From contig CAWCKM010000018.1 of assembly GCA_963796125.1 (NCBI GenBank), positions 1,951-65,950 on the forward strand: DNA of 64,000 bases, read 5' to 3'. Position 1 is the first letter of the stretch; every line of letters starts with the position of its first letter. Below, in pieces: positions 8,388 through 55,468 of this stretch. The notes beneath the pieces were generated by a model. It searched no databases, was not told the DNA's origin, and worked only from the letters and a program-made list of their open reading frames with translations. The position numbers and the translations under genes were made by a program. The DNA comes from Nitrospirota bacterium (lineage in GTDB: Bacteria > Nitrospirota > Thermodesulfovibrionia > Thermodesulfovibrionales > SM23-35).

Positions 8388-8388
8388 C

Positions 8389-20179: not shown

Positions 20180-20459
20180 ACCCCTTTCCCCTCCTTCTCT
20201 GGCCCTCCCCCATCAAGGGGGAGGGAACATTAACCCCTCCTTTGCCTCCCCTTAGACTAGAGGGGACGGTGTAGGTGAACTTGGTCAGCGTCTAACAAAA
20301 TGACTACCTTATCCACTCATCCCTTCCGGTGACATAAGTCGACCGTCATCCCCCTCGTTGACTTAATAGAGATGTAACGAGGCAGAAAATCTCCCCTCAC
20401 CCCTCTTTGCCAAAGAGGGGAATTCCTCCCTTTGGAAAAGGGAGGTAAGGAGGGATTTT
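20180..20459. repeat. cluster of C/G-run hairpin repeats
   Basis: CCCTCCCCCATCAAGGGGGAGGG, CCCCTCTTTGCCAAAGAGGGG and CCTCCCTTTGGAAAAGGGAGGTAAGGAGGGATTTT. Same modules as at 55357-55468. Confidence 0.7.
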
Positions 20460-23852: not shown

Positions 23853-25314
<1,462 letters not shown>

Positions 25315-25396: not shown

Positions 25397-26941
25397 ATGA
25401 CTCAGACCGAAAAGATTTTAGTCCTTGATTTCGGTTCCCAGTACACTCAGCTCATTGCGAGGCGTGTCAGAGAATGCAAGGTTTATTCGGAAATATTTCC
25501 CTTTAATGCCTCCATTCGAAAAGATAAAGAACTTTAACCCAAAAGGGATCATTCTTTCAGGAGGCCCTTCAAGCGTTTATGATAAGAATGCACCAATCCT
25601 TGATATAGAAGATCTTTGAGCTTGGAATACCTGTGCTCGGTATCTGTTACGGCATGCAGCTCATGGCCCATCTTTTCGGTGGAAAAGTAGCAAAGGCAGC
25701 AAAAAGAGAATATGGGAAGGCAGAGCTCATTATTGACAACAGGATGAGCATTTTTGATGGAATCCCAAATAAAACCACTGTCTGGATGAGCCACGGAGAC
25801 AGGATCATAAAGTATCCCTCTTCTTTTAAACCAATAGCACATACGTCCAACTCACCTGTTGCTGCAATGGCAGATCAAAAGAAAGGATTATATGCATTGC
25901 AGTTTCACCCCGAAGTTATACATACACCAAAAGGTTTTGAGATCCTCAGGAACTTTCTCTTCAAGGTATGCAAATGCAAGCCTGTATGGACGATGAAATC
26001 CTTCATAGAGTCAGCTACAGAAGATATACGGGAAAAGGCCGGCAGGAAAAAAGTTGTATGCGGTATAAGCGGAGGGGTTGATTCTTCTGTAACAGCAGTA
26101 CTGGTTCACAAAGCCATAGGAGACCATCTTACGTGCATCTTCGTAGACAATGGAGTCCTCAGGGCAGGAGAGGCTAAGAAGGTTGAGGAAACTCTGAGGA
26201 AACACTTCCGTATGAAGATACATTGCGTAGATGCCTCTGAACGGTTTTTGAACAGGTTAAAAGGTGTGACTGATCCTGAGGTAAAGAGGAAACGCATTGG
26301 GAACGAATTCATAAAGGTCTTTGAAGAAGAGGCAACAACGATAAAGGGAGTGAAGTTCCTTGCTCAGGGAACATTGTACCCAGATGTAATCGAAAGTGTT
26401 CCCTTTAAAGGTCCTTCTGCTACTATTAAAAGTCATCATAATGTCGGGGGACTCCTGAAGAGGATGAAACTGAAACTCATTGAACCCCTCAGGGAACTAT
26501 TCAAGGATGAAGTACGTGTTTTAGGAAAGGAACTTGGGTTACCTGATGAGATAATAAACCGGCATCCTTTTCCCGGACCCGGTCTCGCCATAAGGGTCAT
26601 CGGAGAGGTTACAAAGGAAAGGTGTGATATATTGAGGAAGGCAGATACCATAGTCCTTGGATGAGATAAAAAAGGCAAGACTGTACACAGAACTCTGGCA
26701 GTCCTTTGCTGTGCTCCTTCCTGTTAAAAGTGTTGGGGTTATGGGTGATGAGAGGACATACGAAAATGTGATCGCTGTCAGGGCTGTAAAGAGCCTCGAC
26801 GGTATGACTGCAGACTGGGCAAGGATTCCCCATGATGTTCTCGGGATTATTTCAAACAGGATAATAAATGAGGTAAAAGGCGTTAACAGGGTGGTTTACG
26901 ATATAAGCTCGAAACCACCAAGTACTATAGAGTGGGAGTAA
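25397..26941 (+). CDS. guaA: GMP synthase (glutamine-hydrolysing), multiple frame breaks
   Basis: [20 protein letters not shown] from the ATG at 25397. [15 protein letters not shown], and C-terminal ...[14 protein letters not shown]. Split over at least four track ORFs. Confidence 0.92.
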
Positions 26942-26986: not shown

Positions 26987-27930
26987 ATGGATATAGAGAC
27001 TTATCTGAAAGAAAAACGTGAACTAATTGATTCTTACCTGGAGTCATATTTCAGTATTCCTGCCGAACCTTCACTCCTCCATGAGGCAATGCGGTATTCC
27101 CTTTTTGCAGGAGGCAAAAGAATCCGCCCTATCCTTGCCCTTTCAGCTTACGAAGCATGTGGAAGAGACCCCAAAAATATTATCCCTTATGCTTCAGCGC
27201 TCGAACTTATACATACCTATTCTCTTATCCATGATGACCTGCCTTCCATGGATAATGACGACCTGAGAAGAGGAAAATCAACAAACCATAAAGTATTCGG
27301 TGAAGCTATTGCCATTCTTGCAGGCGATGCCCTTCTCACAGAGGCATTCTTAATGCTGACGAATAATTCCCTTTTCCCCCCCTTAGTAAAGGGGGAGAGA
27401 GAGGGGTTAAAGGGGGTAAGGGGAGATTACATGATGAAATAAAATCATCCTCCTTATTAAAAGCAATAAGGGAGGTTGCTCTTTCTTCCGGCGTTCACGG
27501 CATGGTAGGAGGTCAGGCCATGGATATTTTGTCAGAGAACTCAAAACCTGATAGAGATACCCTTACCTTTATCCACACTCATAAAACAGCAGCTCTCATA
27601 ACAGCATCTGTGAGAATGGGAGGAATACTTGCTGACAGTGATGTAAATACTTTGAAGGCTCTTACAAAGTATGGAGAAAGAATAGGACTTGCTTTCCAGA
27701 TTACTGACGATATCCTTAATGTTGAAGGCAATACCGAGGAACTTGGAAAAGCGGCAGGTTCAGATGCTAAAATGAAGAAAATGACCTATCCGGCATTTTA
27801 TGGAATTGAGAAGTCACGACAAGAAGCCGAAAATTTAGTCGCAGAGGCGATAGATGCACTTGCTCTATTTTCTTCTGATGCAGACCCATTGAGAGCAATC
27901 GCCCGCTACCTCATACAAAGGAGAGTTTGA
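26987..27930 (+). CDS. ispA: (2E,6E)-farnesyl/geranylgeranyl diphosphate synthase, interrupted by a miniature repeat
   Basis: [17 protein letters not shown] (first DDxxD) and FQITDDILN (second). The two halves (26987..27442 and 27502..27930) are in different frames on either side of the repeat at 27368-27428. Confidence 0.88.
27368..27428. repeat. C/G-run hairpin repeat inserted in ispA
   Basis: TTCCCTTTTCCCCCCCCTTAGTAAAGGGGGAGAGAGAGGGGTTAAAGGGGGTAAGGGGAGATT. Confidence 0.7.
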
Positions 27931-29813
27931 TGTATCTGGAATCAATCAAAAGTCCATCAGATCTCAAAAGTCTCTCGATTGCAGAGCTCAAAGTGGCTTG
28001 CAAAAGAGATACGTGAGAACAATATTACGAAAATGTATCAGCAAATGGAGGCCATCTCGCCTCAAACCTTGGTATAGTTGAATTGGCAATCGCTCTCCAT
28101 TATGTATTCAATTCACCTGTAGATAAAATCATATGGGATGTGGGTCATCAGTGTTATCCCCATAAACTCCTCACAGGAAGATACAAAAGATTTTCTACGC
28201 TCAGACAATATGGAGGCATCTCCGGCTTTCCCAAAAGAAATGAGAGTGAACATGATGCCTTCGGTACCGGACATAGTTCCACTTCAATATCAGCGGCTCT
28301 CGGAATAATCGAAGGAAGAGATAAGAAAAAAGAGAACTTTCAAGGTCATAGCTGTTATCGGTGATGGAGCAATGTCTGCCGGGCTTGCTTTCGAAGGATT
28401 AAACAATGCCGGTCACCTCAAGAAAGATCTTATTGTCATCTTAAATGACAATGAAATGTCTATATCCAAAGAATGTTGGTGCTCTCTCTGCATACCTCAA
28501 CAGAATACTGACGGGAGAATTCTATCAGAAATTCAAAAGAGAGACAAAATCTTTCCTCGAAGGAATTCCGAAACTGGGGAAGAGGGCTGCAAGGATAGCT
28601 CAGAGGACAGAGGAGATGCTTAAAGGACTTTTCCTTCCCGGAATCATCTTTGAAGAACTCGGGTTTAATTATATCGGTCCCATAGATGGTCATAACATAG
28701 AGCTTTTAATCGAGACCTTCAAGAGGATAAAAGGAGCAGACATCCCCTACCCTGATACATGCTGTAACAAAAAAGGGAAAGGGTTATAAGTTTTCAGAGA
28801 AAAGACCGTCTTTTTTTCATGGGGTTGGTCCTTTCAAAGTCGAGACAGGATCAATCATCACAGGAGGCGGGTCTACCTATAGTGAAACCTTTGGCAGGAT
28901 TCTGACAGACCTTGCTGCAAAAGATGAGAGGATCGTCGCTATTTCAGCAGCGATGAAAGAAGGCACCGGTCTGAGAGAGTTTGCAGAAAGATACCCGGAC
29001 AGATTCTATGATGTCGGCATTGCTGAACCTCATGCAGTAACCTTCGCAGCAGGACTTGCCACGCAAGGCTTACGGCCTGTCGTAGCCATCTATTCAACCT
29101 TTCTTCAGAGGGCCTATGATGAGATTGTCCATGATGTCTGTCTCCAGAACCTCCCTGTTGTTTTTGCTATCGACAGGGCTGGCATTGTTGGAGAAGACGG
29201 ACCTACCCATAACGGTCTCCTCGACCTGTCATATCTCAGACATATCCCGAATATTGTAGTGATGGCGCCGAAAGATTCTTTTGAACTAAAGGTCATGTTT
29301 GAGCTTGCCCTGCAACATGACGGCCCGTCAGCCATACGGTATCCGAGAGGAAACGTACCCAGCTTTCCTCATTCTTTATATATGCCTTTCCATATTGGAG
29401 AGGCTGAAATTCTTAAGGATGGAGATGAGATTGCTATAATAGCCCTTGGTAATTCTGTCTATCCAGCCGTGTTTGCTGCTGAGCGGCTATACAAGGATGG
29501 TGTAAGCGCGATGGTTGTCAATGCACGGTTTGCAAAACCCCTGGACTGTAATCTCCTGATCTCAACAGCTTCACGGATTAAAAAGATTATCACCGTGGAA
29601 GATAACACCCTGAGCGGTGGTTTTGGCAGTGCTGTGCTTGAATTTCTGAATGATGCAGAGATTCCACATGTAAAAGTCCGTCGACTTGGATTACCGGATG
29701 AATTTATTTGCCAGGGTCATCTTGATGAACTGAGAAAAAAATATGGTCTCGATGAAGAAGGCATATATCAATCCGCACTCTCTCTCCTCAAAGAACCAAC
29801 ATATAGCCATTGA
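27930..29813 (+). CDS. dxs: 1-deoxy-D-xylulose-5-phosphate synthase (multiple frame breaks)
   Basis: The ATG at 27930 overlaps the ispA stop. [31 protein letters not shown], and C-terminal transketolase-like domains. Split over at least five track ORFs. Confidence 0.92.
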
Positions 29814-31535: not shown

Positions 31536-32700
31536 ATGCTGAGAACGTTCAAAGTAGAGAGACTCCATGCAAGCCTTATCCCTGAATCTACTCTGTTTAA
31601 GGTACTAAAATACCTTGATAGAGAAAAGATAGAAACACCCTTCCTTCTTATTGACAGTGACACAGTCCGGGAAAAAGTATCCCTCATTGGACAGCATATT
31701 AAGGACTCAAAGGTATTTTATGCTGTGAAGGCAAACCCTGACAGAAAGATCCTCAGATTCCTGAACGATCTTAACCTGGGTTTTGAAATATCCTCTGAGG
31801 GAGAACTGGAAATACTTGCGTCCCTCGGTGTAGGGCCCGAAAGGATTATATCAAGCAACCCTGTAAAATCTCTCAAGTTTTTGCGTCTGGCTTCCTCCTA
31901 CGGAATCAATTATTTTTCATATGATTCTGAAGACGAGATAGAAAAACTCTCAAACTATGCTCCTCACTGCAATGTGTATGTAAGGCTTTCCGTACCGAAC
32001 GAAGGCAGCGAGTGGCCCCTGAGCAAAAAGTTCGGCGTAGAACTCGATGAGGCTGCAGCTCTTCTGTCTGCTGCAAAAGAAAAAGGACTCAATCCGGTAG
32101 GAATTACTTTTCATGTTGGCTCTCAGTGCACAAATATTTACAACTGGCATATTGCCCTTGACAAGGCAAGGGCTTTGTGGGGTAAAGCCGAGAAGAATGG
32201 TATAAAACTGACCCTTCTTAATATCGGCGGCGGTTATCCGATAAATTACACAAAACATGTGATCAGTATCGATGCAATCGAGAAACAGGTAAACAACCTT
32301 ATTTATGACTATATTCCCTGAAGACGTTGAAATACATATCGAACCAGGCAGAGCAGTGGTTGGAGATGCCGGCGTATTGGTTACAACAGTAATTGGAAAA
32401 GCCTCCAGATCGGATGAAGACTGGCTTTATATAGACGTAGGCGTTTTTAACGGTCTGATGGAGAGCGTCGGTGGCATAACATACAGCTACATTGTAGAAA
32501 GCTATAAACATGCAAGGTCTAAAAAGAGATGGACACTGGCAGGTCCGAGCTGTGACAGCTTCGATGTGATAGATAAAAATGTAGCTCTCCCGGAACCGAA
32601 CATTGGAAATCTGATTCTCATATTATCAAGTGGTGCCTATACTATATCCTATGCTTCGGAATTCAATGGCTTTTCAATACCAAAAACTATACTGATATAA
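31536..32700 (+). CDS. type III PLP-dependent decarboxylase (Orn/DAP/Arg / carboxynorspermidine decarboxylase family), one frame break
   Basis: FYAVKANPD (PLP lysine), HVGSQ, GGGYP, EPGRAVVGDAG. The break is near 32300. Sits next to two speE genes. Confidence 0.8.
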
Positions 32701-32715
32701 GGAAAGGATGAAACA

Positions 32716-33555
32716 ATGATTAAATTTTTTGAAAAAGCACCATATGCGCCGGTGGAGTACTCCTATGACGTGGAAGAGATCCTTTACAGGGGTAAGAGTA
32801 AGTTTCAGGAAATTAAGGTTATCAGAAACCCGCATTTCGGCAGGATGCTCATCCTTGACGATGTTGTCCAGATTACTGAAAGGGACGAGTTTTTTTACCA
32901 TGAGATGCTCACCCATATCGTCATGCATGCCCATCCGTGTCCAAAGAAGGTAATCGTGATTGGTGGTGGAGACGGAGGAGTTGTGAGAGAAGTGCTCAAG
33001 CATAAAACAGTTGAAAAAGTCTATTTCGTGGAGATAGATGAGGAAGTAATCAACGTTTCAAGGAGATTCTTCCCCGGTGTTGCTTCAGGCGTTGATGATC
33101 CGCGTGTAGAGATAAAAATTATGGACGGAGCGGATTTTGTATTAAAAAGGCAACACGCAGATATAGATGCAGTTATCATTGATTCTACAGATATTATCGG
33201 GTTTGCACGAAGTCTTTTCACGGGAGATTTTTTTACTTCTGTCAAACAGTGTCTTACGAATGATGGCATGTTCGTTACACACACGGAATCGCTCCATTTT
33301 CATAAAGATATGGTTATTGAAATCCAGGAAGTGCTTAAATCCGTCTTCCCTTTGGTCGATCTGTATACTGCTCCTCTTGCAACGTATCCGGGAAACTGGT
33401 GGGTCTTTGCTGTCGCATCAAAAGGTCTCTCGCCGCGTGAGGCAAGACATGACCCGGAGATAATAACAAAATTTTACGATGGAGAAATCCACCGGCAGTC
33501 TTTTATGACAAAAGGTTTGTATGAGAAACTGATGCAGAGAAAGCTTGCATGGTAG
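32716..33555 (+). CDS. speE: spermidine synthase / aminopropyltransferase
   Basis: FQEIKVI....GRMLILDDVVQ.TERDEFFYHEML.H, GGGDGGVVREVLKH and DSTD. Confidence 0.88.
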   Translation: MIKFFEKAPYAPVEYSYDVEEILYRGKSKFQEIKVIRNPHFGRMLILDDVVQITERDEFFYHEMLTHIVMHAHPCPKKVIVIGGGDGGVVREVLKHKTVEKVYFVEIDEEVINVSRRFFPGVASGVDDPRVEIKIMDGADFVLKRQHADIDAVIIDSTDIIGFARSLFTGDFFTSVKQCLTNDGMFVTHTESLHFHKDMVIEIQEVLKSVFPLVDLYTAPLATYPGNWWVFAVASKGLSPREARHDPEIITKFYDGEIHRQSFMTKGLYEKLMQRKLAW

Positions 33556-34405
33556 GAAATTGTCAATTCCAAGCAACAAAAATAACTGGTTCATTGACAA
33601 AGACAGCAGACACAGATGGATATATCACAGGATAAAAAAGCATGTTTTATCAGTTAAGACAAGGTTCCAACAGGTAGAATTCATTGATACTTATGAGCTT
33701 GGACGTCTTGTTGTTCTCGACAACAAAATACAGTCTGCTGAAGCAGATGAGTTTATCTACCATGAAACCCTTGTACATCCTGCTATGATCGCACACCCGG
33801 ACCCGAAGATTGTTCTGATTCTCGGCGGAGGTGAGGGAGCAACTCTCAGAGAGGTTCTGAGACATGGAACAGTTGAAAAAGTCGTCATGGTAGATATTGA
33901 TGAAGAGTTTGTAAGCTTATGCAAAAAACATCTCAGGAACTGGCACCATGGTTCTTTCAACGACAAGCGGGTCGAATTAATTTTCGCCGATGCAAAGGAA
34001 TACATCAGTAACAGCACGCCATTCTTTGATGTTATCATCGCCGACATAAGTGATCCTTTTGAAAAAGGGCCGGCTCAGGAACTATATACCATGAAATTCT
34101 ACTCGGATATAAAAAAGGCTCTCAAGACCACCGGTATCTTTGTGACTCATGTAACAGGTGTTTTCTATACTTCAGGCAGATATCGCTATATGGATATTTT
34201 AAAAACGCTCAATGATATTTTTCCTCTCACACATTTTTATTATGAATATATTCCTAGTTATAGCTCTCTGTGGGGATTTGCCGCTTGCTCTCAAAAATAC
34301 AGCCCCCGAAAGATTTCTCCTGATACGGTATATAAGAGGTTAAAAAAGAGGAATCTCGATTCCCTCTCCTACTATGATAAAGAAACACATACAAAACTTT
34401 TCTAA
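33545..34405 (+). CDS. second spermidine-synthase-family aminopropyltransferase paralogue
   Basis: FQQVEFIDT..LGRLVVLDNKIQSAEADEFIYHETLVH, GGGEGATLREVLRH and ADISDP. Confidence 0.85.
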   Translation: MHGRKLSIPSNKNNWFIDKDSRHRWIYHRIKKHVLSVKTRFQQVEFIDTYELGRLVVLDNKIQSAEADEFIYHETLVHPAMIAHPDPKIVLILGGGEGATLREVLRHGTVEKVVMVDIDEEFVSLCKKHLRNWHHGSFNDKRVELIFADAKEYISNSTPFFDVIIADISDPFEKGPAQELYTMKFYSDIKKALKTTGIFVTHVTGVFYTSGRYRYMDILKTLNDIFPLTHFYYEYIPSYSSLWGFAACSQKYSPRKISPDTVYKRLKKRNLDSLSYYDKETHTKLF

Positions 34406-34628
34406 CTACCCAGGTTTCTCAGAAATTTTCTGTTGAACTCCCCCTTTCCTAAAGGAGTATAGAGGGGCTTACTAAAAATTATTTATGAATACCTGCTTAC
34501 GAATGCTTTTCAAGTCAAAACAACTTTCCTGCCGATGATAGGGTAATCTGGTAACCCTCCGAAATAAAATCAACTGCATTGTCTATTCTTCGAGAAGAAT
34601 ATTGAAACCAGCCTGTTCAAAAAGGTTG

Positions 34629-34685
34629 AACCAGTTCGTACTGAGCTTTGCATTCCTTTGATATATTCAGTCGAGTTTCATTGTT
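34629..34685. other. weak attC-like imperfect palindrome
   Basis: AAC-CAGTT-CGTACTG...(22-nt loop)...CAGTCG-AGTTTCATT-GTT followed by AAAT. The AACAATGA-type arm is on the opposite strand relative to the sites at 37304 and 39155. Confidence 0.3.
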
Positions 34686-34843
34686 AAATAACAGGATATT
34701 TACTGTTCAGAAGAAATCAAGGCATTGGCTGGAAACGTTATGTGAGAGGAAATTTGGAAAATAGAATTAAATAATGTAGGAAGTGTCCCTTTGACCTATC
34801 CCTTCGCTTGAGTAACAGTTTAGTACATTTGTCGTCTGATGTC

Positions 34844-36469
34844 TCAGCTTGAATTGCAGTAAAGAGCGGCTTGTGCTTTAGCGGTGTCGCAAGTCAGGAG
34901 AGTTTGCAGAAATTCTCTTGGATGCCGACCCTGTCGCATGGCGGTAAGCAGAAGACTGGGCAAGATGCTGTGTGTCCTTAATCCACTTTCAGAGCGTGTT
35001 CCGAACATGATTTTACGAAAGATCACAAGAAAACGGATTGATTGTTCTGCCTGATTGTTTGTTGGCTGCACACCGGGATGTCGAAGGAAAGTGAACAAAT
35101 GCTTTTGATCCTTTCCGATAAGTGAAGCTCTTAAAGTTTCAGCAGGATTGTAACTGAGCTTGCAGGCACAAAGCTTTTTAAGATCCGAAACGAATTGTTT
35201 TTCGATAAGAGACGCTTGATTCCATTGAAGGGTACCGGAGAGAAGTTCCTGTCCTACCGCGCAAGCCTCTGAGAAAAAAGTAGCGATTTTATCACAAAAG
35301 GCTTCTGCCTTTTTATCACGGGCTGCATCCTCTATGAGCAGAAGCTCCCGGGTAATTTCTTTGGCTTTAGTCATGAGATGGCCCAAACATGACTGCCGCG
35401 CTTTCGCATTGGCGCCGTTATATGCGGCATAACGATCGGCAACCAGAACCCCGCCGAAATCTGATCCGAGGATGGATTGTGCCACTTCCGTTGACCGATG
35501 CCGGTCAATCTGGAAGAACGCCAGATCGGTATTGCCCGCATACCATGCAAAATGGCCTATGCCGTCATTTCGCCATGAAGTTTCATCTGCATGAATGACA
35601 GCGGAAGCCTTGATCTTCTCTCGCAAATCTTCATAAATCGCCGCACCCTTTACCGCTGCTTGTCGGTCAAACCCCACAGCAGAGGCTGGCACAAATTGCA
35701 GGCCGAATAAATCCCTGAAAACCTCCTGGACTTTTCTATATGTCATGCCCATTCGATACCGCAAATAGATAGCAGCAGACTTCGCAACCGGTCCGATAGG
35801 GGCATTGAGAAGCTCATCTTCTGCCGCTTGAACAACAGGCCGGTTACAATGACCGCAAAATGCCTCACGATGCAGGTATCGGGTAACAAAGGGGCGGGGC
35901 TGAAGGACAATATCTTCCTGAAGATGTTCCTTAACACCCTTAATCGGCGTGAGATTGTGGGATTGGCAATGGGGACAAATCCTCGGGGCGGGTACTTCCA
36001 CGGTTTGGTCCACATGTATGGGTTTGTATCTAAACCATCCCGAATGGCCAACCGGAGCGCCACGCCTCTTCTTCCCCCCATCTACTGGTGTTGAGGCATT
36101 CTCTGCATCCCTGCCGTTTTCATCAGTATCTTTCTTTTTGTTTGCCTTAAATTGCCTCCGATGTAAAGCAGTATTCTTAGCCTTCAATTCCGCATTTTCC
36201 TTCTCCAGTGCCTGGATTCGTTTCAGTGCAGTATTCAACTCATCGCCCATTGTATCTATGATCCTCAGATGTTCTTGGTACGTTTCACCGGCACGTCGAT
36301 ACTCACCCAAAACCCACGTCGTGGACAGCCAATCCAAATAAGGACAGTTATGCTCATAAGGACAGGTAAAGTCAGGCGGTGGATAAGAGGGGCGAGGCAT
36401 ACTCCTTATTCGTTCTCCAGGTTTAGAATCTCCCAGTTGACCTTGGAGAGTTTCTGCATGAGTAGCCAC
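34844..36469 (-). CDS. IS66-family transposase (TnpC-like)
   Basis: Leucine-zipper region (LKRIQALEKENAELKAKNTAL), zinc-finger CPHCQS, and DDE-region blocks HADETSWR and ADRYAAYN. The likely true start is the ATG at 36400 (MPRPSY...), preceded by AAGGAG. Confidence 0.85.
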   Translation of the reverse strand: MATHAETLQGQLGDSKPGERIRSMPRPSYPPPDFTCPYEHNCPYLDWLSTTWVLGEYRRAGETYQEHLRIIDTMGDELNTALKRIQALEKENAELKAKNTALHRRQFKANKKKDTDENGRDAENASTPVDGGKKRRGAPVGHSGWFRYKPIHVDQTVEVPAPRICPHCQSHNLTPIKGVKEHLQEDIVLQPRPFVTRYLHREAFCGHCNRPVVQAAEDELLNAPIGPVAKSAAIYLRYRMGMTYRKVQEVFRDLFGLQFVPASAVGFDRQAAVKGAAIYEDLREKIKASAVIHADETSWRNDGIGHFAWYAGNTDLAFFQIDRHRSTEVAQSILGSDFGGVLVADRYAAYNGANAKARQSCLGHLMTKAKEITRELLLIEDAARDKKAEAFCDKIATFFSEACAVGQELLSGTLQWNQASLIEKQFVSDLKKLCACKLSYNPAETLRASLIGKDQKHLFTFLRHPGVQPTNNQAEQSIRFLVIFRKIMFGTRSESGLRTHSILPSLLLTAMRQGRHPREFLQTLLTCDTAKAQAALYCNSS

Positions 36470-36579
36470 ATTTTACTGTACCGTCTGGCCATTTCCTGCG
36501 CTTTATTTACTATGCCTTTTCGCACATATAGAGATTCGGTTTTCCCCTTCACCTTTGTCGTAAGACCATAGCCGGTCAT
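36406..36579 (-). CDS. small IS-internal accessory ORF (57 aa from the ATG; frame open to 36684)
   Basis: MTGYGLTTKVKGKTESLYVRKGIVNKAQEMARRYSKMWLLMQKLSKVNWEILNLENE. Its stop lies 5 nt upstream of the transposase ATG. It does not resemble the canonical IS66 TnpA/TnpB as I remember them. Confidence 0.4.
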   Translation of the reverse strand: MTGYGLTTKVKGKTESLYVRKGIVNKAQEMARRYSKMWLLMQKLSKVNWEILNLENE

Positions 36580-36797
36580 GGCAGGGGACTTGGCGATTGT
36601 ACCGATAAGGAAAAAATCGAGGCTCGCTGTGATTTCTTCCTTAAGTACAGCTCGACGCTTTTTAAGGATGTCTATTTTTTGTATGTTATCTCCTATAAAG
36701 AGTATTTATACTCTTTATATAATATCAATAAATCGCCTGCAAGTCAACACTTTTGTGGATGTCTGGTAGATGTCAGGCGAAAAAAGTTACGGAAGGA

Positions 36798-37145
36798 CTA
36801 AACTGTTACAAAAAGATGTCTTACAAAAGGCTTTTTATCAACCAAGACTCTTCTTCCCTGCAAGATCCGCCCTGCAAGACTGAGCGGTGCATTGTTAAGA
36901 ATCACGAGGTCTATTTCATCAGTTCCGAGTATATCTGCAATTCTACCAAACATCTCAAGATAATCCGGTTTCTTCATGTCCTTCACATACACCGCCAGAT
37001 CGACATCGCTCAGGGGATTTGGCCTCGCCTTGACCATTCCGCCAAAGAGGTACGCAAAGATAACATTAGAGTCACGGAGAAAAAAGTCACTCAGCAAACT
37101 CATTTTTTGATGGATATTTTCTGGAACTTTCTTAAATCTAATCAT
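36798..37145 (-). CDS. MNT-type nucleotidyltransferase (antitoxin-like), 3' end supplied by the IS66 inverted repeat
   Basis: The FAYLFGGMVKARPNPLSDVDLAVYV motif (G-x-...-D-x-D). The last three sense codons and the stop (GTA ACA GTT TAG) are the IS terminal repeat. Confidence 0.75.
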   Translation of the reverse strand: MIRFKKVPENIHQKMSLLSDFFLRDSNVIFAYLFGGMVKARPNPLSDVDLAVYVKDMKKPDYLEMFGRIADILGTDEIDLVILNNAPLSLAGRILQGRRVLVDKKPFVRHLFVTV

Positions 37146-37303
37146 GATTAAAACAATACCACAAAAAAGCCAGAAATGTAATTTTCTTCCGTTAACTTCT
37201 CTATCAAATGTGCAGAGCAGATGATATTGAAAAGAGTGAGACTAACACCTACAAGGTGTAAAAAATAGACAGTGAAGAAAATTAGCGATTATGAAAAGAA
37301 ATG

Positions 37304-37343
37304 AACAATGAGTTCAGCGGGTTCCCCGCTTGAACGATTGGTT
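37304..37343. other. attC-like recombination-site candidate
   Basis: AACAATGAGTTCAGCGGG-ttc-CCCGCTTGAACGATTGGTT. AAC/GTT termini, an unpaired spacer, a CAGCGGG/CCCGCT(T)G stem and a bulged base. 39/40 identical to 39155-39194. Confidence 0.6.
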
Positions 37344-37409
37344 AGCGGCGATCATCCTTTGTCCAATGTCAAGGGCTGACCGCTATTTCCATTCTGATAA
37401 TGCTTGCGA

Positions 37410-39108
37410 TTAAAGATCACGAAAAGCCTCAATAATTGTTTCCAGGCTTTCGTCGCACACGGAACATAGATGTTCAAAATGCTTACGAAAGCTACCATAA
37501 TCTTGTAATGCTTGCTTTCTCACTATTTCTGCTTCGCTTCCAGAAGCATGGCCTTTCAATATGGAGCGTAAGTTATGGATTTCATGGAAGGGTGACATGA
37601 GTTGGTGCGCATGTTCAGCCTCAAAGCCCACAGCAATGAGACATTCTTCAGTAAGTTTTAGAGCTCTTAACTTTATGTCAGGATTTCTGCCAAGCTCTTT
37701 TGCTCTCTTGCGCAACCATTTTTCATCTAAACCCTCAACCACGAGTTGATCGAGATTCAATATTTCCTCCGCCCATTCATCACGAGAAGAGGTATATGGA
37801 TAGTGGACTGTCTTAGGCGCATCTTCGTCCCTTAGAGTCCACCAGCCGACTTTTGCGCGATGTAGCTTGTCAAGCTTATTCTTTAGGCTATAAAGTGCGT
37901 CGTATCCTTCATAAAATTGGCCATCAAAGTCAGTGGTAATTGCTCTTTCAGAAAGTGGCGCTTTGGGCTTTTCATTATATTGTTTCCAATGAAGCTGTTC
38001 TTCGTAAGGAAGATGACTCAAATATATTAGATAGGTATGGACTTGACCTGCTGCATTGACATCGAACGTTTTTAAATGCCATGCGCCACGGCAACCAACT
38101 GATCGACTTTCTAAATGGTATTTTGCCCTATCGCTCTTGTATTTTAACAAGACTTCGGGCTTAAAAAATGCGGGGTTATCTCGAAAGGAAGATCTGACTT
38201 AGTAAAATAATTAGATAACCATGCAGGGTCACATGATATTTCAGCAATCTTTTTATTTTTCCAATCATATGCAATAAACGTTGCGTACTGCTTTGCCTCT
38301 TTGGATTCAGGCTTACCCCACATATTATTTATTATTTTATCCTTTGGAATGCTGATTTTCTTGACCTGAAATCCTCTTGAGTAGCTCCCATAACTCTCGG
38401 AGACTACCAAGCTTCCAAAAATGTTATTCTTACCATCAAATTGTATCGGAGCATTTCGAGAACCCCAGCCGGAAAAACTACCTGATTTATATCGTGTGAA
38501 ATCAAACATACGAACTAATAACATTTTACTTACACTGGTGTACTCTCCAAAGATGTCTTTCTTAATTGTAATAACTGTGCCCGTTTCATTATTCGGCAGC
38601 CTATTTATCTCTATGATTTTTACGATGTCTTCAAAATCGCCAAATCTGTCAAGTCTACACCAAGCACTACGTTCGGACATGAAGTGAATCCCTAATACAT
38701 GAGATATTTTCTGTTCCAACTCAAAGTACAGCTTCTTAGATTCAACCCCTTCAAAAGAGCGACCAAATAATATCGGCTCCCCCTTACTCAGGGTTTTACT
38801 TCCAGCATGAGCAAGGGGTCCTTCAATCCAAGCTTCATCTGAAGAGCATGTTATCCCCCAAGTGGAAAATGGATTATGACTCCAGCCTTGAAGATCATCG
38901 ACGGTTGAGTCATCAATCGCAACCTCCGGTATCAGAACAGCATGAATAAAAATGTGTCGTAAGGATGCATAGATAATAATGTTTTCATCCTCTATTTCTT
39001 TTTCAAGAAAAGGTAGCACATCCTCCTGTCTAACCCAGCTGTGAGGGCGTCTTCCTGTGCTGGTTCTTTGTCAAGCGATAAAATTATTTTGAAGTCGTAT
39101 AGGTTCAT
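37410..39108 (-). CDS. large orphan cassette protein (about 565 aa if two frame breaks are repaired) with an R-x5-H (HEPN-like) C-terminal motif
   Basis: Track ORFs 38144..39019 and 37410..38150 overlap by 7 nt (FLSPKSC* / MLKYKSDRAKY). A further N-terminal piece (MNLYDFKIILSLDKEPAQEDALTAGLDRR) starts at the ATG at 39108 in a third frame. The C-terminus contains FHEIHNLRSILKGHASG. Confidence 0.55.
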
Positions 39109-39154
39109 CACTCATTCAATGTTTCCGCAAATCTTCACACACGGCACACCGATT

Positions 39155-39194
39155 AACAATGAGTTAAGCGGGTTCCCCGCTTGAACGATTGGTT
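39155..39194. other. attC-like recombination-site candidate
   Basis: AACAATGAGTTAAGCGGG-ttc-CCCGCTTGAACGATTGGTT followed by GAAA. Confidence 0.6.
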
Positions 39195-39223
39195 GAAAGC
39201 TCATTCTCCCATTCCCAGTCACT

Positions 39224-39878
39224 TTAAGTTGGCAACGTCCCCAACAGACCCGTCCCGAAGTATTTACTCGTTCTGTTCCTCGACCACAATGCGACGAGGT
39301 TCACGTAGTCAATAAAGGTTAGTTCATCGGGGATTAATCGGCTTTGGCTGCATAACCTGCCAAATTCCTTCTTGAACTTTTTGAAACGTTGGTAGATGAT
39401 GCTTCCACTGGGAATTGTCTTTCGTTTGGACGAAGTTTGTAGCCAGTCTCTTATTTCCGTGACAAGTAATTGATGATTGTTCTTGTGTGTGCGAATATCC
39501 ATTCCTGATATATCAGACAACATCTTTTGGTACCTATATGGATAGCGATCGAGAACTAAACAAACCTTTCTGTTCTGTATTTCTTTGCCAAACCGTTTAG
39601 CACCGAAGAATAAGCCCAGTTCAAATGGCATATTAAATCGAGGTAATTTGCTTTTGGAATCAAGTTCAGTCCTGGAAATATCATGTATTCCGTATTTGCA
39701 TGTTGAGATTCTTTACTTCATTAATCTTTTCCAAGCGAAACTGGCTTGCATCGTTGGTCTCCTTGGAGCAACGTGGAACAAAGCCGGAATCTAACACAAC
39801 AAAAATAGCAGCATCAAATAAAGATTTATAACCTTCGTCGAACGGACAGTTGATAAATACTTGATCGTCGTATCTCAT
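39224..39878 (-). CDS. TIR- / nucleoside 2-deoxyribosyltransferase-like protein (one frame break)
   Basis: Track ORFs 39681..39878 (MRYDDQVFINCPFDEGYKSLFDAAIFVVLDSGFVPRC) and 39224..39631 (MPFELGLFFGAKRFG...VCLVLDR..YRYQKMLSDISGMDI). The alternating beta-strand/helix pattern with a conserved Glu after a strand resembles TIR/NDT flavodoxin-like folds. Its start ATG overlaps the upstream stop (ATGA at 39875-39878). Confidence 0.5.
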
Positions 39879-40522
39879 TTTTTGCGCGTTGTCATAGCTG
39901 ATTTAGATAATATGTCAATCAGATTCTTCGTTGAACTTGCAGATTTCTGCATGTCGGATAATGACTTTAGCAAGGTTGAAGGTAGCTTGCACGCCTGTTG
40001 GGTCTTCCGCATTTCTTCAAGAAGTGAACCCATCTTAGATGAGGTTTTCTGCGTTTCAGCCAATGTCTTTAGTAAGGATTCTGGCGGCTTGCATGCCTCT
40101 TGAGCCTTCCGCATTTCTTCAAGAAGTGCACCCGCCTTAGATGAGGCTTTCTGTGCCATCTGCATTTGTTGAATTATTGTATTCGTCGGCTGTAATAAAT
40201 CCTTAGTTGCACTTATGGAAGCAAGTGTTTTATCAATATTTGACGCCTCTTTCTGGATTTCAGTAAATGTCTTTAGTAAGGATTCTGGCGGCTTGTACGC
40301 CTCTTGAGCCTTCCGCATTTCTTCAAGAAGTGTGCCCGCCTTAGATGAGGCTTTCTGCGTTTCAGCCAATGTCTTTAGTAAGGATTTTGGCGGCTTGTAT
40401 GTCTCTTGAGCCTTCCGCATTTCTTCAAGAAGTGTGCCCGCCTTAGATGAGGCTTTCTGCGTTTCAGCCAATGTCTTTAGTAAGGATTCTGGCGGCTTGC
40501 ATGCTTCTTGATTTTTGCGCAC
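39875..40522 (-). CDS. tandem 34-aa helical-repeat protein
   Basis: Units of KPPESLLKTLAETQKASSKAGTLLEEMRKAQEA(C/Y). A probable N-terminal extension runs to the ATG at 40602 (MNRTKSMIKQLVEARKDNRS) through one frame change near 40540. Confidence 0.65.
   Translation of the reverse strand: MRKNQEACKPPESLLKTLAETQKASSKAGTLLEEMRKAQETYKPPKSLLKTLAETQKASSKAGTLLEEMRKAQEAYKPPESLLKTFTEIQKEASNIDKTLASISATKDLLQPTNTIIQQMQMAQKASSKAGALLEEMRKAQEACKPPESLLKTLAETQKTSSKMGSLLEEMRKTQQACKLPSTLLKSLSDMQKSASSTKNLIDILSKSAMTTRKK
39963..40520. repeat. 102-bp tandem repeat array (about 5.5 units) inside the CDS
   Basis: The unit register recurs at 39963, 40065, (40167, divergent), 40269, 40371 and 40473. Units at 40269, 40371 and 40473 differ by only a few bases. 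Confidence 0.9.
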
Positions 40523-40900: not shown

Positions 40901-41699
40901 TTAGATTATCTTATTAAGATCAACATCAAGCCCAGCGGCTCGTAGTTCTCGCCCGAGAAGAAGTCGCCATCCGCCAGACTTATCTAAGGGAACAAATACG
41001 ACACCGTCATAATCCGAAGGAATTTCCACTCCTTCTTCATATAAAGCGCACACACGATCCCGTCCGATTCGCCCCAGGAAGAAACTCGAGCTCAAGGATA
41101 ACGTTCTGCCTTGCACGTGGTTTATATGCATCGGGTAAATCGTCGGTTTTCCCTCCCCGGTCGTCAGCCGTCAAGATGATAACGGAATACCCCACGTCTG
41201 AGTAATCGATGAATTTCTCAATTATTGTTTTTCCTCTGTTTGGCTGTTCGTGCAGTATTATAGGATCAAGCCCAATCTGTCTTATCAGGCGTGCAACAGA
41301 TTCACGTGCAGCTTCATTATGCCCATGTACTATAAAAACTTTATTGGATGATGCAGGATTCTTTTCCTCTCGCTGTCCAAGATTTTCTCCTGTATCCGGC
41401 CAATACTCTTGCACTTCGTCAATCATAGATTGAAGAAGCGCATCCGCACTTGCTTTTCCATTAACAAAAGCTTGCGCGAAAGCAGGTTCAGGATTCATCA
41501 TATTGTACGACCCAGGAGTAAAACTGACGCCTCGGAAATCGCGAATATGACGAGTGTCTTTCCCAAAAAGATGTTCGAGCGAGACGTCTGTATCTCGCCG
41601 CCATTTCTTAAAAGCGGGGTCTTTGGTTGCACTTGCAGATAGTCCCCGGAGCACTTCCAAACGCTCCTTTAGCTTCTCAATTATCTTTTGTTTTTCCAT
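40901..41699 (-). CDS. COG4271-type TIR-like nucleotide-binding protein with a unique N-terminal domain (one frame break)
   Basis: VFIVHGHNEAARESVARLIRQIGLDPIILHEQPNRGKTIIEKFIDYSDVGYSVIILTADD...RARQNVILELEF in ORF 41037..41699. It continues as FFLGRIGRDRVCALYEEGVEIPSDYDGVVFVPLD in ORF 40901..41131. Confidence 0.65.
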
Positions 41700-41731: not shown

Positions 41732-41785
41732 AACGGTTTTTGGAGCGGCTTTAGCCGCGGGAAAAATCCGCTCGATTGAGTTGTT
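41732..41785. other. attC-like recombination-site candidate (weaker stem)
   Basis: AACGGTTTTTGGAGCGG...CCGCTCGATTGAGTTGTT followed by AAAT (GTTAAAT). It shares the GAGCGG/CCGCTC box and the CGATTG..GTT right end with the sites at 37304 and 39155. Confidence 0.4.
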
Positions 41786-41804
41786 AAATAGTAATTTTTT
41801 CTAT

Positions 41805-41895
41805 ATTAACCCCGGCAGGGAATTGGCAGCCTAAGCCGCCAATTCCTTCGACGCCTCGCTTTCACATATGTGAAGCCAGGGAGTTGCCTTAGTTA
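41805..41895. other. compound palindromic structure downstream of the IS30-disrupted gene
   Basis: GGAATTGGCAGcctaagCCGCCAATTCC plus the perfect palindrome TTCACATATGTGAA. It could be a long attC variant or a terminator. Confidence 0.3.
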
Positions 41896-42022: not shown

Positions 42023-43072
42023 TTCAACAATGAAGTGCAACACTTGGGAGAGCAGAAAAGGAGATGCTATCCTAAGTGTCTATGCCAAAGAACTACAAAC
42101 ATATTACCATGGACGAAAGAGAACTCATAGCTAAAATGAACTGGGAGGGTAAGGGGCTGAACGAGATCGCCAGTGCCCTTGCCCGGGACAAAGGAACCAT
42201 CTCACGGGAACTCAAACGAAACGCCTCTTCTGAATACAGATGCTACACCCCGTGTCGAGCGCAATACCGAGCCGATGAACGGAGGAAAACGGCAAGTAGG
42301 CGTCCCCGGCTTAAGAACGAGACAGTCCGTCAGTATGTACTGGAGAAACTTGCCATAGGATGGTCTCCCGAACTGACAGCCGGAAGACTTCCATTGGAGC
42401 ATCCTGGTTTTTCAATCAGCTATGAGGCGATCTACCAGTATATCTATCACCCAAAGACAGCAGAGCGTGAGGAACTGATCGCTTCTCTGCGCCGTTGTCA
42501 TCGGAAGCGCATGCACAAGAGCATAGGTCGAAAAGTACGTAAAACCAAGATTCCCAATCGGGTGCCGATTGATGTCAGGCCGAAATCAGTTGAATCCAGA
42601 CATTACTATGGTCATTGGGAAGGCGATAGTCTCATATCCCGGAAAAGCCTTGCTGCCTTAAACAGTCTCACAGAGAGAAAAAGCAGGCTGCTATTGCTTA
42701 CCAAACTGAAGCGCAAGGGTGCAGAGGAAACAAAGGATGCCATCATCAGACGGTTATATGCACTCCCTGCCTCAATGAGAAGGACACTTACCCTCGATAA
42801 CGGGACCGAGAACGCCCAGCATGAAGAGATTACTTCAGAGATTGGTCTGAAGTGCTATTTTGCCCATCCCTATGCCTCATGGCAGCGAGGAACTAATGAG
42901 CACATTAATGGTCTTGTTCGATGGTATTTGCCAAAGGGTACGGATTTCAGTAAGATTTCAGAGGAGCAGATTGCTCAGATAGAATCATTGATCAACAATC
43001 GCCCCAGAAAGTGTCTGGGGTTTAAAACACCACTTGAAGTCGCTTCTTCTTGTGTTGCACTTCGAGATTGAA
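42023..43072 (+). mobile_element. IS30-family insertion sequence (1050 bp)
   Basis: Terminal inverted repeats are TTCAACAATGAAGTGCAACAC (42023-) and GTGTTGCACTTCGAGATTGAA (-43072); 17 of 21 positions match. One transposase ORF lies inside. Confidence 0.85.
42076..43071 (+). CDS. IS30-family transposase
   Basis: HTH N-terminus (GLNEIASALARDKGTISRELKRN) and DDE blocks HWEGDSL, TLDNGTENAQH, YFAHPYASWQRGTNEHINGLVRWYLPKG. Confidence 0.9.
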   Translation: MSMPKNYKHITMDERELIAKMNWEGKGLNEIASALARDKGTISRELKRNASSEYRCYTPCRAQYRADERRKTASRRPRLKNETVRQYVLEKLAIGWSPELTAGRLPLEHPGFSISYEAIYQYIYHPKTAEREELIASLRRCHRKRMHKSIGRKVRKTKIPNRVPIDVRPKSVESRHYYGHWEGDSLISRKSLAALNSLTERKSRLLLLTKLKRKGAEETKDAIIRRLYALPASMRRTLTLDNGTENAQHEEITSEIGLKCYFAHPYASWQRGTNEHINGLVRWYLPKGTDFSKISEEQIAQIESLINNRPRKCLGFKTPLEVASSCVALRD

Positions 43073-50202: not shown

Positions 50203-50865
50203 TTACTCCCCGGGGTTTTTCATGTGCCTTATGATCTTTCCCTCGCACATATAGATAACCATTTCAGCAATATTTGTTGCATGGTCTGCAATACGTTCAA
50301 GGTATTTTGAGACATAGCTGATTCTTGTGGCTCGGGATACGGTATGCGGATCTTGTATCATGAAAAAGAGCAGTTCATTGAAGACCTGGGCATTCAAATT
50401 GTCCACCTCGTCATCCCTCTTGATCACTTCATACGGTATCTTTGAACAACCCCTCACAAAGGCATCAAGAGAATCTCTGACCATCTCTTCTGTAATTTCA
50501 GCCATTCGGGGTATGTCGATATAGGGCTTCAGTTGCGGCTCATCATTCAACTCGATTGCCCTTTCAGCAATGTTTTCAGCAAGATCCCCGATCCTTTCGA
50601 GGTCAGTCGTTATCTTCATTGCAGTCGTTATAAACCTCAAATCCCTTGCCTTTGGTTGCCTGAGAGCGATCAGCCGTATACATTCTTCATCGATCTCCAC
50701 ATCGAGGGCATTGATCTTGTGATCCTTCTCAATAACCTTTCGTGCAAGGTCACTGTTCCTCTCGACGAGAGACTTCACTGAGTCGTGTATGGCTGCTTCG
50801 ACCAGCGAACCGATTCTTAATACCCTTTCCTTCAACAACCTTAACTCTTCGTCAAAGATTGCCAA
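50203..50865 (-). CDS. phoU: phosphate signalling complex protein PhoU
   Basis: Two PhoU repeats (E.IGD.AENIAE.. / [13 protein letters not shown]). Confidence 0.9.
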   Translation of the reverse strand: MAIFDEELRLLKERVLRIGSLVEAAIHDSVKSLVERNSDLARKVIEKDHKINALDVEIDEECIRLIALRQPKARDLRFITTAMKITTDLERIGDLAENIAERAIELNDEPQLKPYIDIPRMAEITEEMVRDSLDAFVRGCSKIPYEVIKRDDEVDNLNAQVFNELLFFMIQDPHTVSRATRISYVSKYLERIADHATNIAEMVIYMCEGKIIRHMKNPGE

Positions 50866-50925: not shown

Positions 50926-51581
50926 TCAGGTGTAACATGCCTGATGATCTTCCCCTTGCACATATAAATGACCATCTCTGCAATATTGGTTGCATGATCT
51001 GCAATCCTTTCGAGATATTTTGCAACATAAGTTCTCTTCACCGCTGATGGATATAATCTTCGGGTCACGAATCATGAAACCCAGGAGTTCATTGAAGTTC
51101 TTTACGGTAAGTTCGTCAACCTCATCATCCTTCTTTATGACTTCATAGGGCAGTGTTGAGCATCCCCTTACAAAGGCATCGAGGGAGTCTCTCACCATTT
51201 CCTGCGCAATCTCGGCCATCTTCGGTATGTTCACATATGGTTTCAATTGCGGCTCTTCGTTCAGCTCAATTGCCCTTTCGGCAATGTTGACCGCAAGGTC
51301 ACCCATCCGTTCAAGGTCTGTCGTTATTTTCATGGCAGTTGTTATAAATCTCAGGTCTCGTGCCATAGGTTGTCTCAGAGCAATGAGTCTTATACATTCT
51401 TCATCTATTTTTACATCGAGGGCATTGATCATGATGATCCCTCTTGATAACTTCTTTTGCAAGATCACTATTCCTCTCAACAGGGAATGAACAGAATCGC
51501 GTATAGCAACCTCAACCATGCAGCCGAGTTTCATAATACTATTTCTTTTAAGGCATTTAACTCTTCATCAAAGATAGCCAT
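50926..51581 (-). CDS. phoU: second phoU paralogue (several frame breaks)
   Basis: The start ATG at 51581 overlaps the pstB stop. [13 protein letters not shown]... and [37 protein letters not shown]. The DNA is clearly similar to 50203-50865. Confidence 0.75.
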
Positions 51582-52356
51582 TATCCGAACCTTCCTGTAA
51601 TATATTCTTCTGTAAGTTTATTCTGAGGATTAACAAAGAGTGTGTCTGTTTCTCCAAACTCTATCAGTTCTCCTAAATACATAAAGGCAGTATAGTCAGA
51701 TACCCTTGCAGCCTGCTGCATATTATGGGTGACAATTACTATCGTAACAGTTTTTCTTAATTCCTGGAGTAAGTTCTCGATATTCGCTGTTGATATAGGG
51801 TCTAGGGCTGAAGTAGGCTCGTCAAAGAGAAGGACCTCTGGTTCCTGTGCAAGGGATCTCGCGATACAGAGCCTCTGCATCTGGCCTCCGGAAAGACTCA
51901 TTCCTGATTCATTGAGTTTATCCTTTACCTCTTTCCATAAATCGGCTCTGACAAGTGCATTTTCAACGATCTCATCAAGCTGGCTCTTCTTCCTTATTCC
52001 CCTGATTTTTGGCCCATATGCCACATTCTCATAAACAGAACTCGGAAAGGGATTAGGCTTCTGGAAAACCATGCCGACCCTCTTTCGTAATTCAATAACA
52101 TCAGTATCCTTTTGATAAATATCTACTCCCTTGAATAGTGACCTGACCTTCAACCCATGAATTCATAATTAGATCATTCATCCTGTTTAATGCTCTGAGG
52201 AGAGTTGATTTGCCACAGCCCGAAGGCCCTATAATTGCGCGTAATTTTATTGTTTCCATATTGAGGTTTACCTTCTTAACAGCCAGGAAATGCTCCATAG
52301 TAGATACTGAAATCCTTTATCTCAAAAATGTTCTTTTCACTAAACTCCTCTACCAT
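51581..52356 (-). CDS. pstB: phosphate ABC transporter ATP-binding protein (frame-broken)
   Basis: [22 protein letters not shown] (Walker A), [27 protein letters not shown]. The N-terminal piece starts at the ATG at 52356. Confidence 0.9.
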
Positions 52357-55356: not shown

Positions 55357-55468
55357 AAAATCCCCCTCAATCCCCCTTTTCCAAAGGGGGAGATTTCCTT
55401 GGATTCCCCTCTTTGGCAAAAAGGGGTTTGTTCCCTCCCTTTGGCAAAGGGAGGTTAGGAGGGATTTT
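55357..55468. repeat. archetypal triple-hairpin C/G-run repeat
   Basis: AAAATCCCCCTCAATCCCCCTTTTCCAAAGGGGGAG...TTCCCCTCTTTGGCAAAAAGGGG...CCCTCCCTTTGGCAAAGGGAGGTTAGGAGGGATTTT. The termini are inverted copies of each other. Confidence 0.75.

Follow-up and report, generated by a model that had tools for sequence, protein, structure and literature searches.

A Large, Unnamed Protein Family with a Conserved R-x5-H Tail and a Putative HEPN-Like Domain, Represented in an Integron Gene Cassette of a Nitrospirota Bacterium

Introduction

RNases of the HEPN superfamily are recognized by an Rx4-6H motif, described as being placed where a helix ends and the next loop begins (PMC3710099), and the proteins available for comparison include stand-alone Abi-type members such as AbiJ, AbiV, and AbiU2, as well as the small “integron cassette HEPN” family (PDB 3jrt). 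Integron cassettes, in turn, are documented reservoirs of defense systems, and one integron defense cassette, “Esos,” has only a HEPN-like domain (Darracq et al., 2025; Kieffer et al., 2025; Getz et al., 2025). Although this role in phage defense has recently been shown, most integron cassettes are unannotated. Here we analyze a cassette gene in a 64,000-nt stretch of a Nitrospirota bacterium (assembly GCA_963796125.1, contig CAWCKM010000018.1, positions 1,951 to 65,950 of the forward strand), hereafter called the window. An earlier note, made from the DNA alone, had described this gene as a single-gene cassette for an orphan protein with an R-x5-H tail compatible with HEPN RNases, located beside a possible MNT partner.

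The gene, which lies on the minus strand, is best explained, taken as a whole and with a probability of about 0.55, as an integron cassette gene encoding a HEPN-type RNase effector, with the breaks in its reading frame being assembly errors. The protein resembles the HEPN superfamily RNases in having R-x(4-6)-H in 237–238 of 240 homologs, a small polar residue next to the arginine, a motif at a helix end, and an all-helical domain. It differs from them in its length of 566 residues, approximately 400 of which form unrelated and highly conserved N-terminal and central domains, in the serine that usually follows the arginine, and in having no significant profile or Foldseek link to the superfamily. 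With these RNases, among them the “integron cassette HEPN” family, it further shares its location on an integron cassette and a conflict/defense neighborhood; with integron defense cassettes such as Esos, as far as the latter is described, it shares an attC-bounded single-gene cassette, a HEPN-like domain, and adjoining TIR-type cassettes. By contrast with these defense cassettes, it matches no PADLOC model, its cassette is large (1.85 kb), and an attC-like site follows the gene in just approximately 8–22% of the species-level homologs.

Two further kinds of systems invite comparison. The HepT/MntA modules (type II/VII toxin-antitoxin systems) are similar in that a putative HEPN-type motif is found with an MNT gene next door, here by chance, whereas in our locus the MNT gene belongs to a separate cassette, none is found near 79 homologs, and the protein has no DUF86 match and resembles HepT/MntA in neither size nor architecture. 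Integron arrays often contain MNT-HEPN pairs. Avs3, a STAND protein of phage defense whose N-terminus carries a Cap4-like nuclease effector, gives the best and sole probable Foldseek match to the full-length model (8dgc, probability 0.99); however, the family described here is without the STAND ATPase, without TPR repeats, and without an invariant D...ExK triad, and the E-value of the match is just 0.011. The likeness to HamA/DUF1837 consists of one weak PADLOC HamA2 match by a single family member.

A Large Family with a Conserved R-x5-H Tail

When the joined sequence of the three reading frames described below was used as the query, at least 875 of the scored candidates matched it at E ≤ 1e-3, and the best 120 matches are nearly all 560–570 residues long, with 51–87% identity over approximately 100% of the query. 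A profile search of 1.84 billion representatives gave 1,954 clusters (50% identity) at a threshold of E ≤ 1e-3 and 539 at the stricter E ≤ 1e-30, with lengths that almost always fall within 550–590 residues. The designation “orphan” therefore does not hold for a protein with at least 875 homologs and approximately 1,950 clusters at 50% identity. The named members are all annotated as “hypothetical protein,” and the window protein has no match in Pfam, NCBIfam, or PADLOC. By sequence comparison, the proteins form a large, unnamed, and uncharacterized bacterial family of approximately 565 residues that is absent from these three collections.

In species-representative genomes, 280 loci were confirmed, distributed over Nitrospirota, Chloroflexota, Gammaproteobacteria, Alphaproteobacteria, Acidobacteriota, Planctomycetota, Gemmatimonadota, Verrucomicrobiota, and cyanobacteria. 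One 90%-identity cluster includes Yersinia, Citrobacter, and Colwellia, which indicates recent horizontal transfer. Just seven records in the plasmid collection have a relative, and none was found in the phage collection. Two Rhodococcus plasmid proteins of approximately 545 residues (L083, 3155–4798; L084, 3155–4783) match residues 307–556 only by tblastn, that is, the central and C-terminal modules, which suggests that the N-terminal domain diverges much faster or is replaced. These two plasmid homologs adjoin AAA ATPases and toxin-antitoxin/RES genes.

Conservation was counted in 240 full-length homologs. R515 is present in 238 and H521 in 237 of them, the exceptions being truncated or misaligned sequences, and both residues are invariant in a 67-sequence alignment going down to 27% identity. 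The R-x5-H tail first seen in the DNA is thus a conserved feature of the family, with a spacing of four to six residues. Among the 210 homologs that could be scored by regular expression, the spacing between R and H is five in 187, four in 17, and six in 6, which is exactly the Rx4-6H range of HEPN proteins. The residue following the arginine is serine in 148, asparagine in 28, and threonine in 19, and the textbook form RNKLxH is found in some members. The helical segment that precedes the motif helix contains an acidic residue, E459, conserved as E or D in 238/240 homologs.

Structures were predicted with AlphaFold2 (AF2) for P0001, the closest intact copy, with 566 residues, on an 850-kb contig of a Nitrospirota metagenome-assembled genome (L001/L002), from a 50-sequence alignment (mean predicted local distance difference test score [pLDDT] 85, predicted template modeling score [pTM] 0.50), and for the window's own 246-residue C-terminal open reading frame (ORF; pLDDT 90, pTM 0.85). 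In the predicted structures, a helix spanning residues 498–518 holds R515, H521 falls in the loop 519–524, and helices 525–538 and 541–563 follow, so that both models place the arginine near the C-terminus of a long helix, with the histidine among the first loop positions. Within these predicted helices, the position of the motif agrees with that given for HEPN proteins (PMC3710099). The C-terminal domain, which is all-helical in the models, probably works like a HEPN domain, as judged from the conserved motif and its predicted setting.

The AF2 model of P0001 further comprises a beta-rich N-terminus of approximately 300 residues, a low-confidence linker (270–305), and a small alpha/beta domain (approximately 308–400) ahead of the helical C-terminus. 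Two residues, G246 and F316, are invariant; W344, N352, Q356, W375, N379, R117, G157, and W446 are, like R515 and H521, each present in at least 237 of the 240 homologs; and E130, D282, K330 (or R), E459 (or D), and H544 are nearly as conserved. The conserved residues of the N-terminal domain include R117, E130, Q133, G157, D203, G246, D282, and K/R284. Extra N-terminal domains are rare, namely TIR in P0157 and DUF7002 in P0264, and such fusions are typical of conflict systems. One member of the alignment, not named by the tool, matches PADLOC ThsB (E 7e-56), and we took it to be P0264 with its ThsB-like DUF7002. A literature search on DUF7002 and by accession numbers found no reports.

An Integron Cassette Bounded by attC Sites

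The repeats that flank the gene (37304–37343 and 39155–39194) fit a 40-nt pattern with 0 mismatches, where 0 matches are expected from 100 shuffles; taken over 43 nt the two repeats are 95% identical, and no further copy occurs in the window. As a reference we used the aadA1 attC of R100. This site was verified to follow aadA1 immediately, with intI1 on one side and qacEdelta1 on the other, and more than 1,800 plasmids share it at 100% identity. The window site aligns with it box by box, in R'' (aadA1 attC GTCTAAC, window CGCTAAC), the spacer after R'' (AATTC, CAATC), L'' (GTTCAAGCC, GTTCAAGCG), L' (GGCTTAAC, GCTGAAC), the spacer before R' (TCAAGC, TCATT), and R' (GTTAGAT, GTTCATT). Folding of either strand of the attC sites gives a bulged hairpin, with z-scores between −2.8 and −3.6. 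In addition, DNA similarity to the locus of the closest intact copy (L001) begins directly after the upstream GTTAATC and stops at the downstream GTTCA, and the flanks are unrelated. Since the similarity is bounded by the GTT cores, the segment 39156–37306 can be regarded as a mobile cassette. The flanking repeats are, judging from these sequence features, genuine attC sites, and the proposal of a single-gene cassette between two attC-like sites is borne out by the alignment with the aadA1 boxes, the hairpins, and the extent of homology.

Several homologs elsewhere are also associated with integrons. In Oceanicoccus (L010), the homolog occupies the first cassette position, and a divergent intI, whose product is 41% identical to IntI1, lies 0.5 kb away. 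A canonical attC follows the gene in L004, L008, L010, L014, L023, L024, and L080, and one that differs from that of the window precedes it in L089. With a box-aware attC score applied to 78 loci, 8% pass the strict threshold compared with 1.3% of the intragenic controls, and 22% compared with 6% pass the loose one; a cruder score, which assumes pairing directly inside the AAC/GTT cores, did not discriminate, and the box-aware score and the alignment to the verified attC were used. Other copies are solitary between housekeeping genes, without attC (L087). In L001, genes for a DUF4365 protein and for an unannotated 318-residue protein (7944–9904) precede the cassette and end at a different attC-like site; DUF4365 is also reported in the integron defense cassette “Divona.”

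In the window, the short array of attC sites sits in a chromosome with 43% G+C. No intI was found in the 64 kb by tblastn with IntI1 (E ≤ 1e-3), which suggests an integrase-less (CALIN-like) array or an integrase outside the window. Further attC-like hairpins at approximately 40892–40840, 41795–41735, and 41895–41810 delimit other cassettes. The two distal ones (approximately 41735–41795 and 41810–41895, minus strand) are imperfect hairpins with single-stranded DNA fold z-scores of −2.4 and −3.1. The CALIN-like cluster is located between the spermidine synthase genes and rtcB.

Reading Frames of the Window Copy

Three minus-strand ORFs, each in a different frame (38992–39111, 38144–39019, and 37410–38150), cover the gene, and the peptide FHEIHNLRSILKGHASGSEAEIV is found in a window ORF translation. 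DNA alignment of the window with the locus of the intact homolog P0001 shows exactly two 1-nt gaps in the coding region. After repair, the product has 566 residues and 89% identity to P0001, with no further stops or lesions. The joined sequence is colinear, at 100% coverage, with hundreds of proteins of 560–570 residues, which rules out chance and identifies the three frames as one gene. The earlier note had read these frames as a single gene of about 565 residues with two single-base frame changes and a 7-nt overlap between two of the ORFs; the alignment to the intact homolog agrees with this reading, the last two ORFs do share 7 nt, and what had been observed is confirmed as a whole, including its coordinates and description. 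What had been made of these observations is supported in part, in that the HEPN-like motif and the attC cassette stand and the orphan status and the link to MNT do not. Programmed frameshifting was rejected as an explanation of the breaks, since the homologs are all single ORFs.

Alternative Explanations

A number of results weigh against the explanation as a HEPN-type RNase effector in a gene broken only by assembly. A Foldseek comparison of the C-terminal model with PDB structures gives no significant match; the HEPN structures 2hsb, 7bxo_D, and 1wwp are found only at E 1.8–4.3 and probability 0.1–0.2, mixed in with vinculin tails, TetR proteins, and designed bundles. No HEPN protein is returned when PDB sequences are searched with profiles of the full length or of the C-terminal domain only, the window protein reaches no Pfam HEPN model, and just one of 10 C-terminal domains gives sub-threshold Pfam matches (HEPN_Cthe2314, E 0.089; HEPN, E 0.18). 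Weak as they are, the appearance of three HEPN crystal structures and these sub-threshold matches over the motif region also count in favor of the HEPN reading. Serine instead of N, H, or D after the arginine is atypical, and many polar residues of the N-terminal and central domains are invariant, such that the main activity could lie there. As to the reading frame, two frameshifts in 1.7 kb are more than the window-wide rate predicts, and the adjoining cassettes are broken too. The HEPN interpretation is thus upheld for the conserved motif, its spacing, and its position, and not by any curated HEPN model; the domain, all-helical in the models, may form a HEPN four-helix bundle. “HEPN-like” is a well-supported description, whereas membership in the HEPN superfamily is unproven, because fold and profile searches give no significant link to solved or curated HEPN families. 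It is conceivable that the protein is not an RNase, that its R/H pair binds a phosphate-bearing ligand or is structural, and that the N-terminal and central domains hold the real activity, which could be that of a Cap4/HamA-like nuclease or of a new enzyme. The central domain is the best-conserved part (dN/dS, the ratio of nonsynonymous to synonymous substitution rates, is 0.025), approximately 15 near-invariant polar residues lie within residues 117–380, and one family member weakly matches PADLOC HamA2/DUF1837 (E 4e-4). Furthermore, the sole probable Foldseek match of the full-length model is Avs3 bound to terminase (8dgc_A/B, 228 columns), and since it is missing from the list for the C-terminal fragment, it can be placed in residues 1–320; its TM-scores are low, and the aligned Avs3 residues are not reported by the tool, so that the matched Avs3 region could not be read out. 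A canonical D...(D/E)xK triad is not invariant in the N-terminal domain of the 240 homologs: the best candidate is D282-x-K284, in which the lysine is an arginine in 49 of 240. A non-RNase, which we consider unlikely overall, is also at odds with an R-to-H spacing that varies exactly as in HEPN proteins, with the small polar residue next to the arginine, and with the HEPN-type helix position. A Cap4/HamA-like nuclease fold in the N-terminal domain may nevertheless serve as a lead from the models.

The preferred explanation, an RNase effector gene with assembly errors, also has to be weighed against genuine loss of the gene and against a partnership with the neighboring MNT gene. The window copy could be a true pseudogene, in which a cassette is decaying through two real 1-nt deletions in an integrase-less array invaded by insertion sequences (IS). 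The cassette region has more breaks per kilobase than the rest of the window, so recent genuine decay is conceivable: two frameshifts fall within 1.7 kb, both neighboring TIR-type cassettes are frame-broken, intI is absent from the window, the array is flanked by IS66 and IS30-like elements, and selection on silent cassettes is weak. However, breaks of this kind are also seen in essential genes of the window, namely guaB, guaA, and valS, which indicates that the window sequence itself is indel-prone; guaB, for instance, is split as 23853–24356 and 24163–25314 at an A-run. Frame-split genes in the window also include a dxs-like gene, pstB, a TolB-like gene, a multihaem cytochrome gene, and both neighboring cassettes, and on the contig of the closest relative, likewise full of split genes, phosphofructokinase and P-type ATPase genes are interrupted too. 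One of the two breaks falls in a homopolymer, and there are no other stops or indels. The dN/dS between the window copy and L001 is 0.11–0.17 overall and 0.025 in the central domain, suggesting purifying selection on the gene over essentially all its divergence. Given the split housekeeping genes and these ratios, both frame breaks are likely indel errors of the assembly, and we consider gene decay rather unlikely. The window copy, being apparently broken only by probable sequencing errors, adds little beyond what the family tells. The assembly of the window appears indel-rich, like long-read data, and any “pseudogene” call in it therefore needs caution. As for MNT, the gene could encode a HEPN toxin paired with the adjacent MNT as its antitoxin, as in HepT/MntA modules, and the MNT ORF does lie 265 nt downstream on the same strand. 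Yet an attC site lies between the two, which makes them different cassettes, and the neighbors differ in L001, L087, and the remaining homolog loci. Among the 1,268 ORFs within 3 kb of 79 homolog loci, phmmer with the window MNT protein found no MNT homolog, and neighbor clustering found no conserved neighbor whatsoever (the largest cluster is present in 5/79). A regular-expression search of the fetched loci found no HepT-like proteins, no DUF86/HEPN remnant was found past the IS66 element (34380–34900), and the protein is four times as large as HepT, with no DUF86 match. The MNT partnership once proposed is therefore not borne out and is very improbable; members of the family are stand-alone genes, and MNT lies next to this one by coincidence.

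Proposed Role and Significance

The likeliest role of the protein may be that of a stand-alone RNase effector in defense or conflict. The C-terminal domain would be a metal-independent HEPN-type RNase, which the N-terminal and central modules might hold inactive or act together with. A trigger such as phage infection or stress would then release the RNase domain and lead to growth arrest, in which case the protein would be a self-contained growth-arrest or defense effector without a separate antitoxin. The genomic context is of the conflict type, with cassettes beside the gene that encode CAP12/Pycsar-type TIR proteins in the window, and with CBASS, toxin-antitoxin, and AAA-ATPase genes as neighbors of homologs elsewhere. 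An effector role also fits the published findings on integrons and defense, since cassettes store defense systems, one of them with only a HEPN-like domain. A bolder possibility, which we put forward only tentatively, is that of an undescribed self-contained anti-phage/abortive-infection protein, in which a new clade of HEPN RNases would be joined to a novel sensor or nuclease module, possibly of the Cap4/HamA-like kind, and to a central domain that is ultra-conserved, in a family widespread over at least eight phyla and partly mobilized by integron cassettes.

The pair R515/H521 offers a directly testable catalytic hypothesis. Were it confirmed, defense catalogs would gain a HEPN clade and a single-protein effector architecture, both of them new, and thousands of “hypothetical proteins” would receive a name.

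Features of the Gene and Its Surroundings

The coordinates of the gene, its predicted domains, and its cassette are given in Table 1.

Table 1. Features of the cassette gene and its flanks (window coordinates).
Feature	Position	Strand	Remarks
Whole gene	37410..39108	−	566 codons plus stop after mending two 1-nt gaps; ATG 39108–39106, TAA 37412–37410
Frame break 1	39041..39045	−	One base fewer than intact homolog; near codon 23, EDAL-x-SWVRQ
Frame break 2	38172..38175	−	C-run, C4 here versus C5 in homolog; EITP/AFFKPEV (slash marks the break); homopolymer
N-terminal beta-rich domain, residues 1–305	38195..39108	−	No family recognized; from AF2 and conservation
Central alpha/beta domain, residues 306–400	37911..38194	−	Best-conserved part; FFKPEVLLKYK...EQLHWKQYNE; dN/dS 0.025
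C-terminal all-helical, HEPN-like domain, residues 436–566	37413..37805	−	Predicted; from AF2 and conservation
R515-x5-H521 motif (RSILKGH)	37548..37568	−	R codon 37568–37566, H codon 37550–37548
Gene cassette	37306..39156	−	1,851 nt between two recombination points
Upstream attC site	39151..39198	−	R'' TTTCAAC ... R' GTTAATC; cassette begins at T 39156
Cassette's own attC site	37300..37347	−	R'' CGCTAAC, L'' GTTCAAGCG, L' GCTGAAC, R' GTTCATT; cassette ends at G 37306
MNT (Polbeta/NTP_transf_2) gene	36798..37145	−	Separate cassette, adjoined on its 3' side by IS66-family element

An IS66-family transposase gene (34844–36760, minus strand) and an upstream accessory ORF abut the 3' side of the MNT cassette, and an IS30-like helix-turn-helix ORF (42076–43071, plus strand) marks the opposite end of the array. 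Upstream of the gene, the neighboring cassette holds two genes, 39224–39878 and 39875–40522 (both minus strand). One of them encodes a protein of five 34-residue (102-nt) tandem repeats; the other is frameshifted and, after manual joining, gives a weak CAP12/Pycsar-TIR match (E 2.4e-4). Another cassette (40901–41699, minus strand) encodes a CAP12/Pycsar-effector-type TIR protein with one frameshift (220 and 76 residues), and the attC-like hairpin at approximately 40892–40840 follows it.

Across the window, genes that are split by frame changes or start mid-domain are located at 23853–25314, 25633–26941, 8871–11618, 28083–29813, 51581–52153, 6306–7387, 56947–58465, and 31536–32700, and an Orn/Arg decarboxylase gene is also among the housekeeping genes of this kind. 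Tandem paralogs are present as two spermidine synthase genes (32716–33555 and 33545–34405, plus strand) and two phoU genes (50203–50865 and 50926–51534, minus strand), the latter beside the pst phosphate-transport operon. A 35-nt G+C-rich palindromic repeat (CCTCCCTTTGGAAAAGGGAGG...) occurs between genes at 17734–17768, 20425–20459, 27376–27410, and 55434–55468, and looks like a repetitive extragenic palindromic (REP) element or a terminator.

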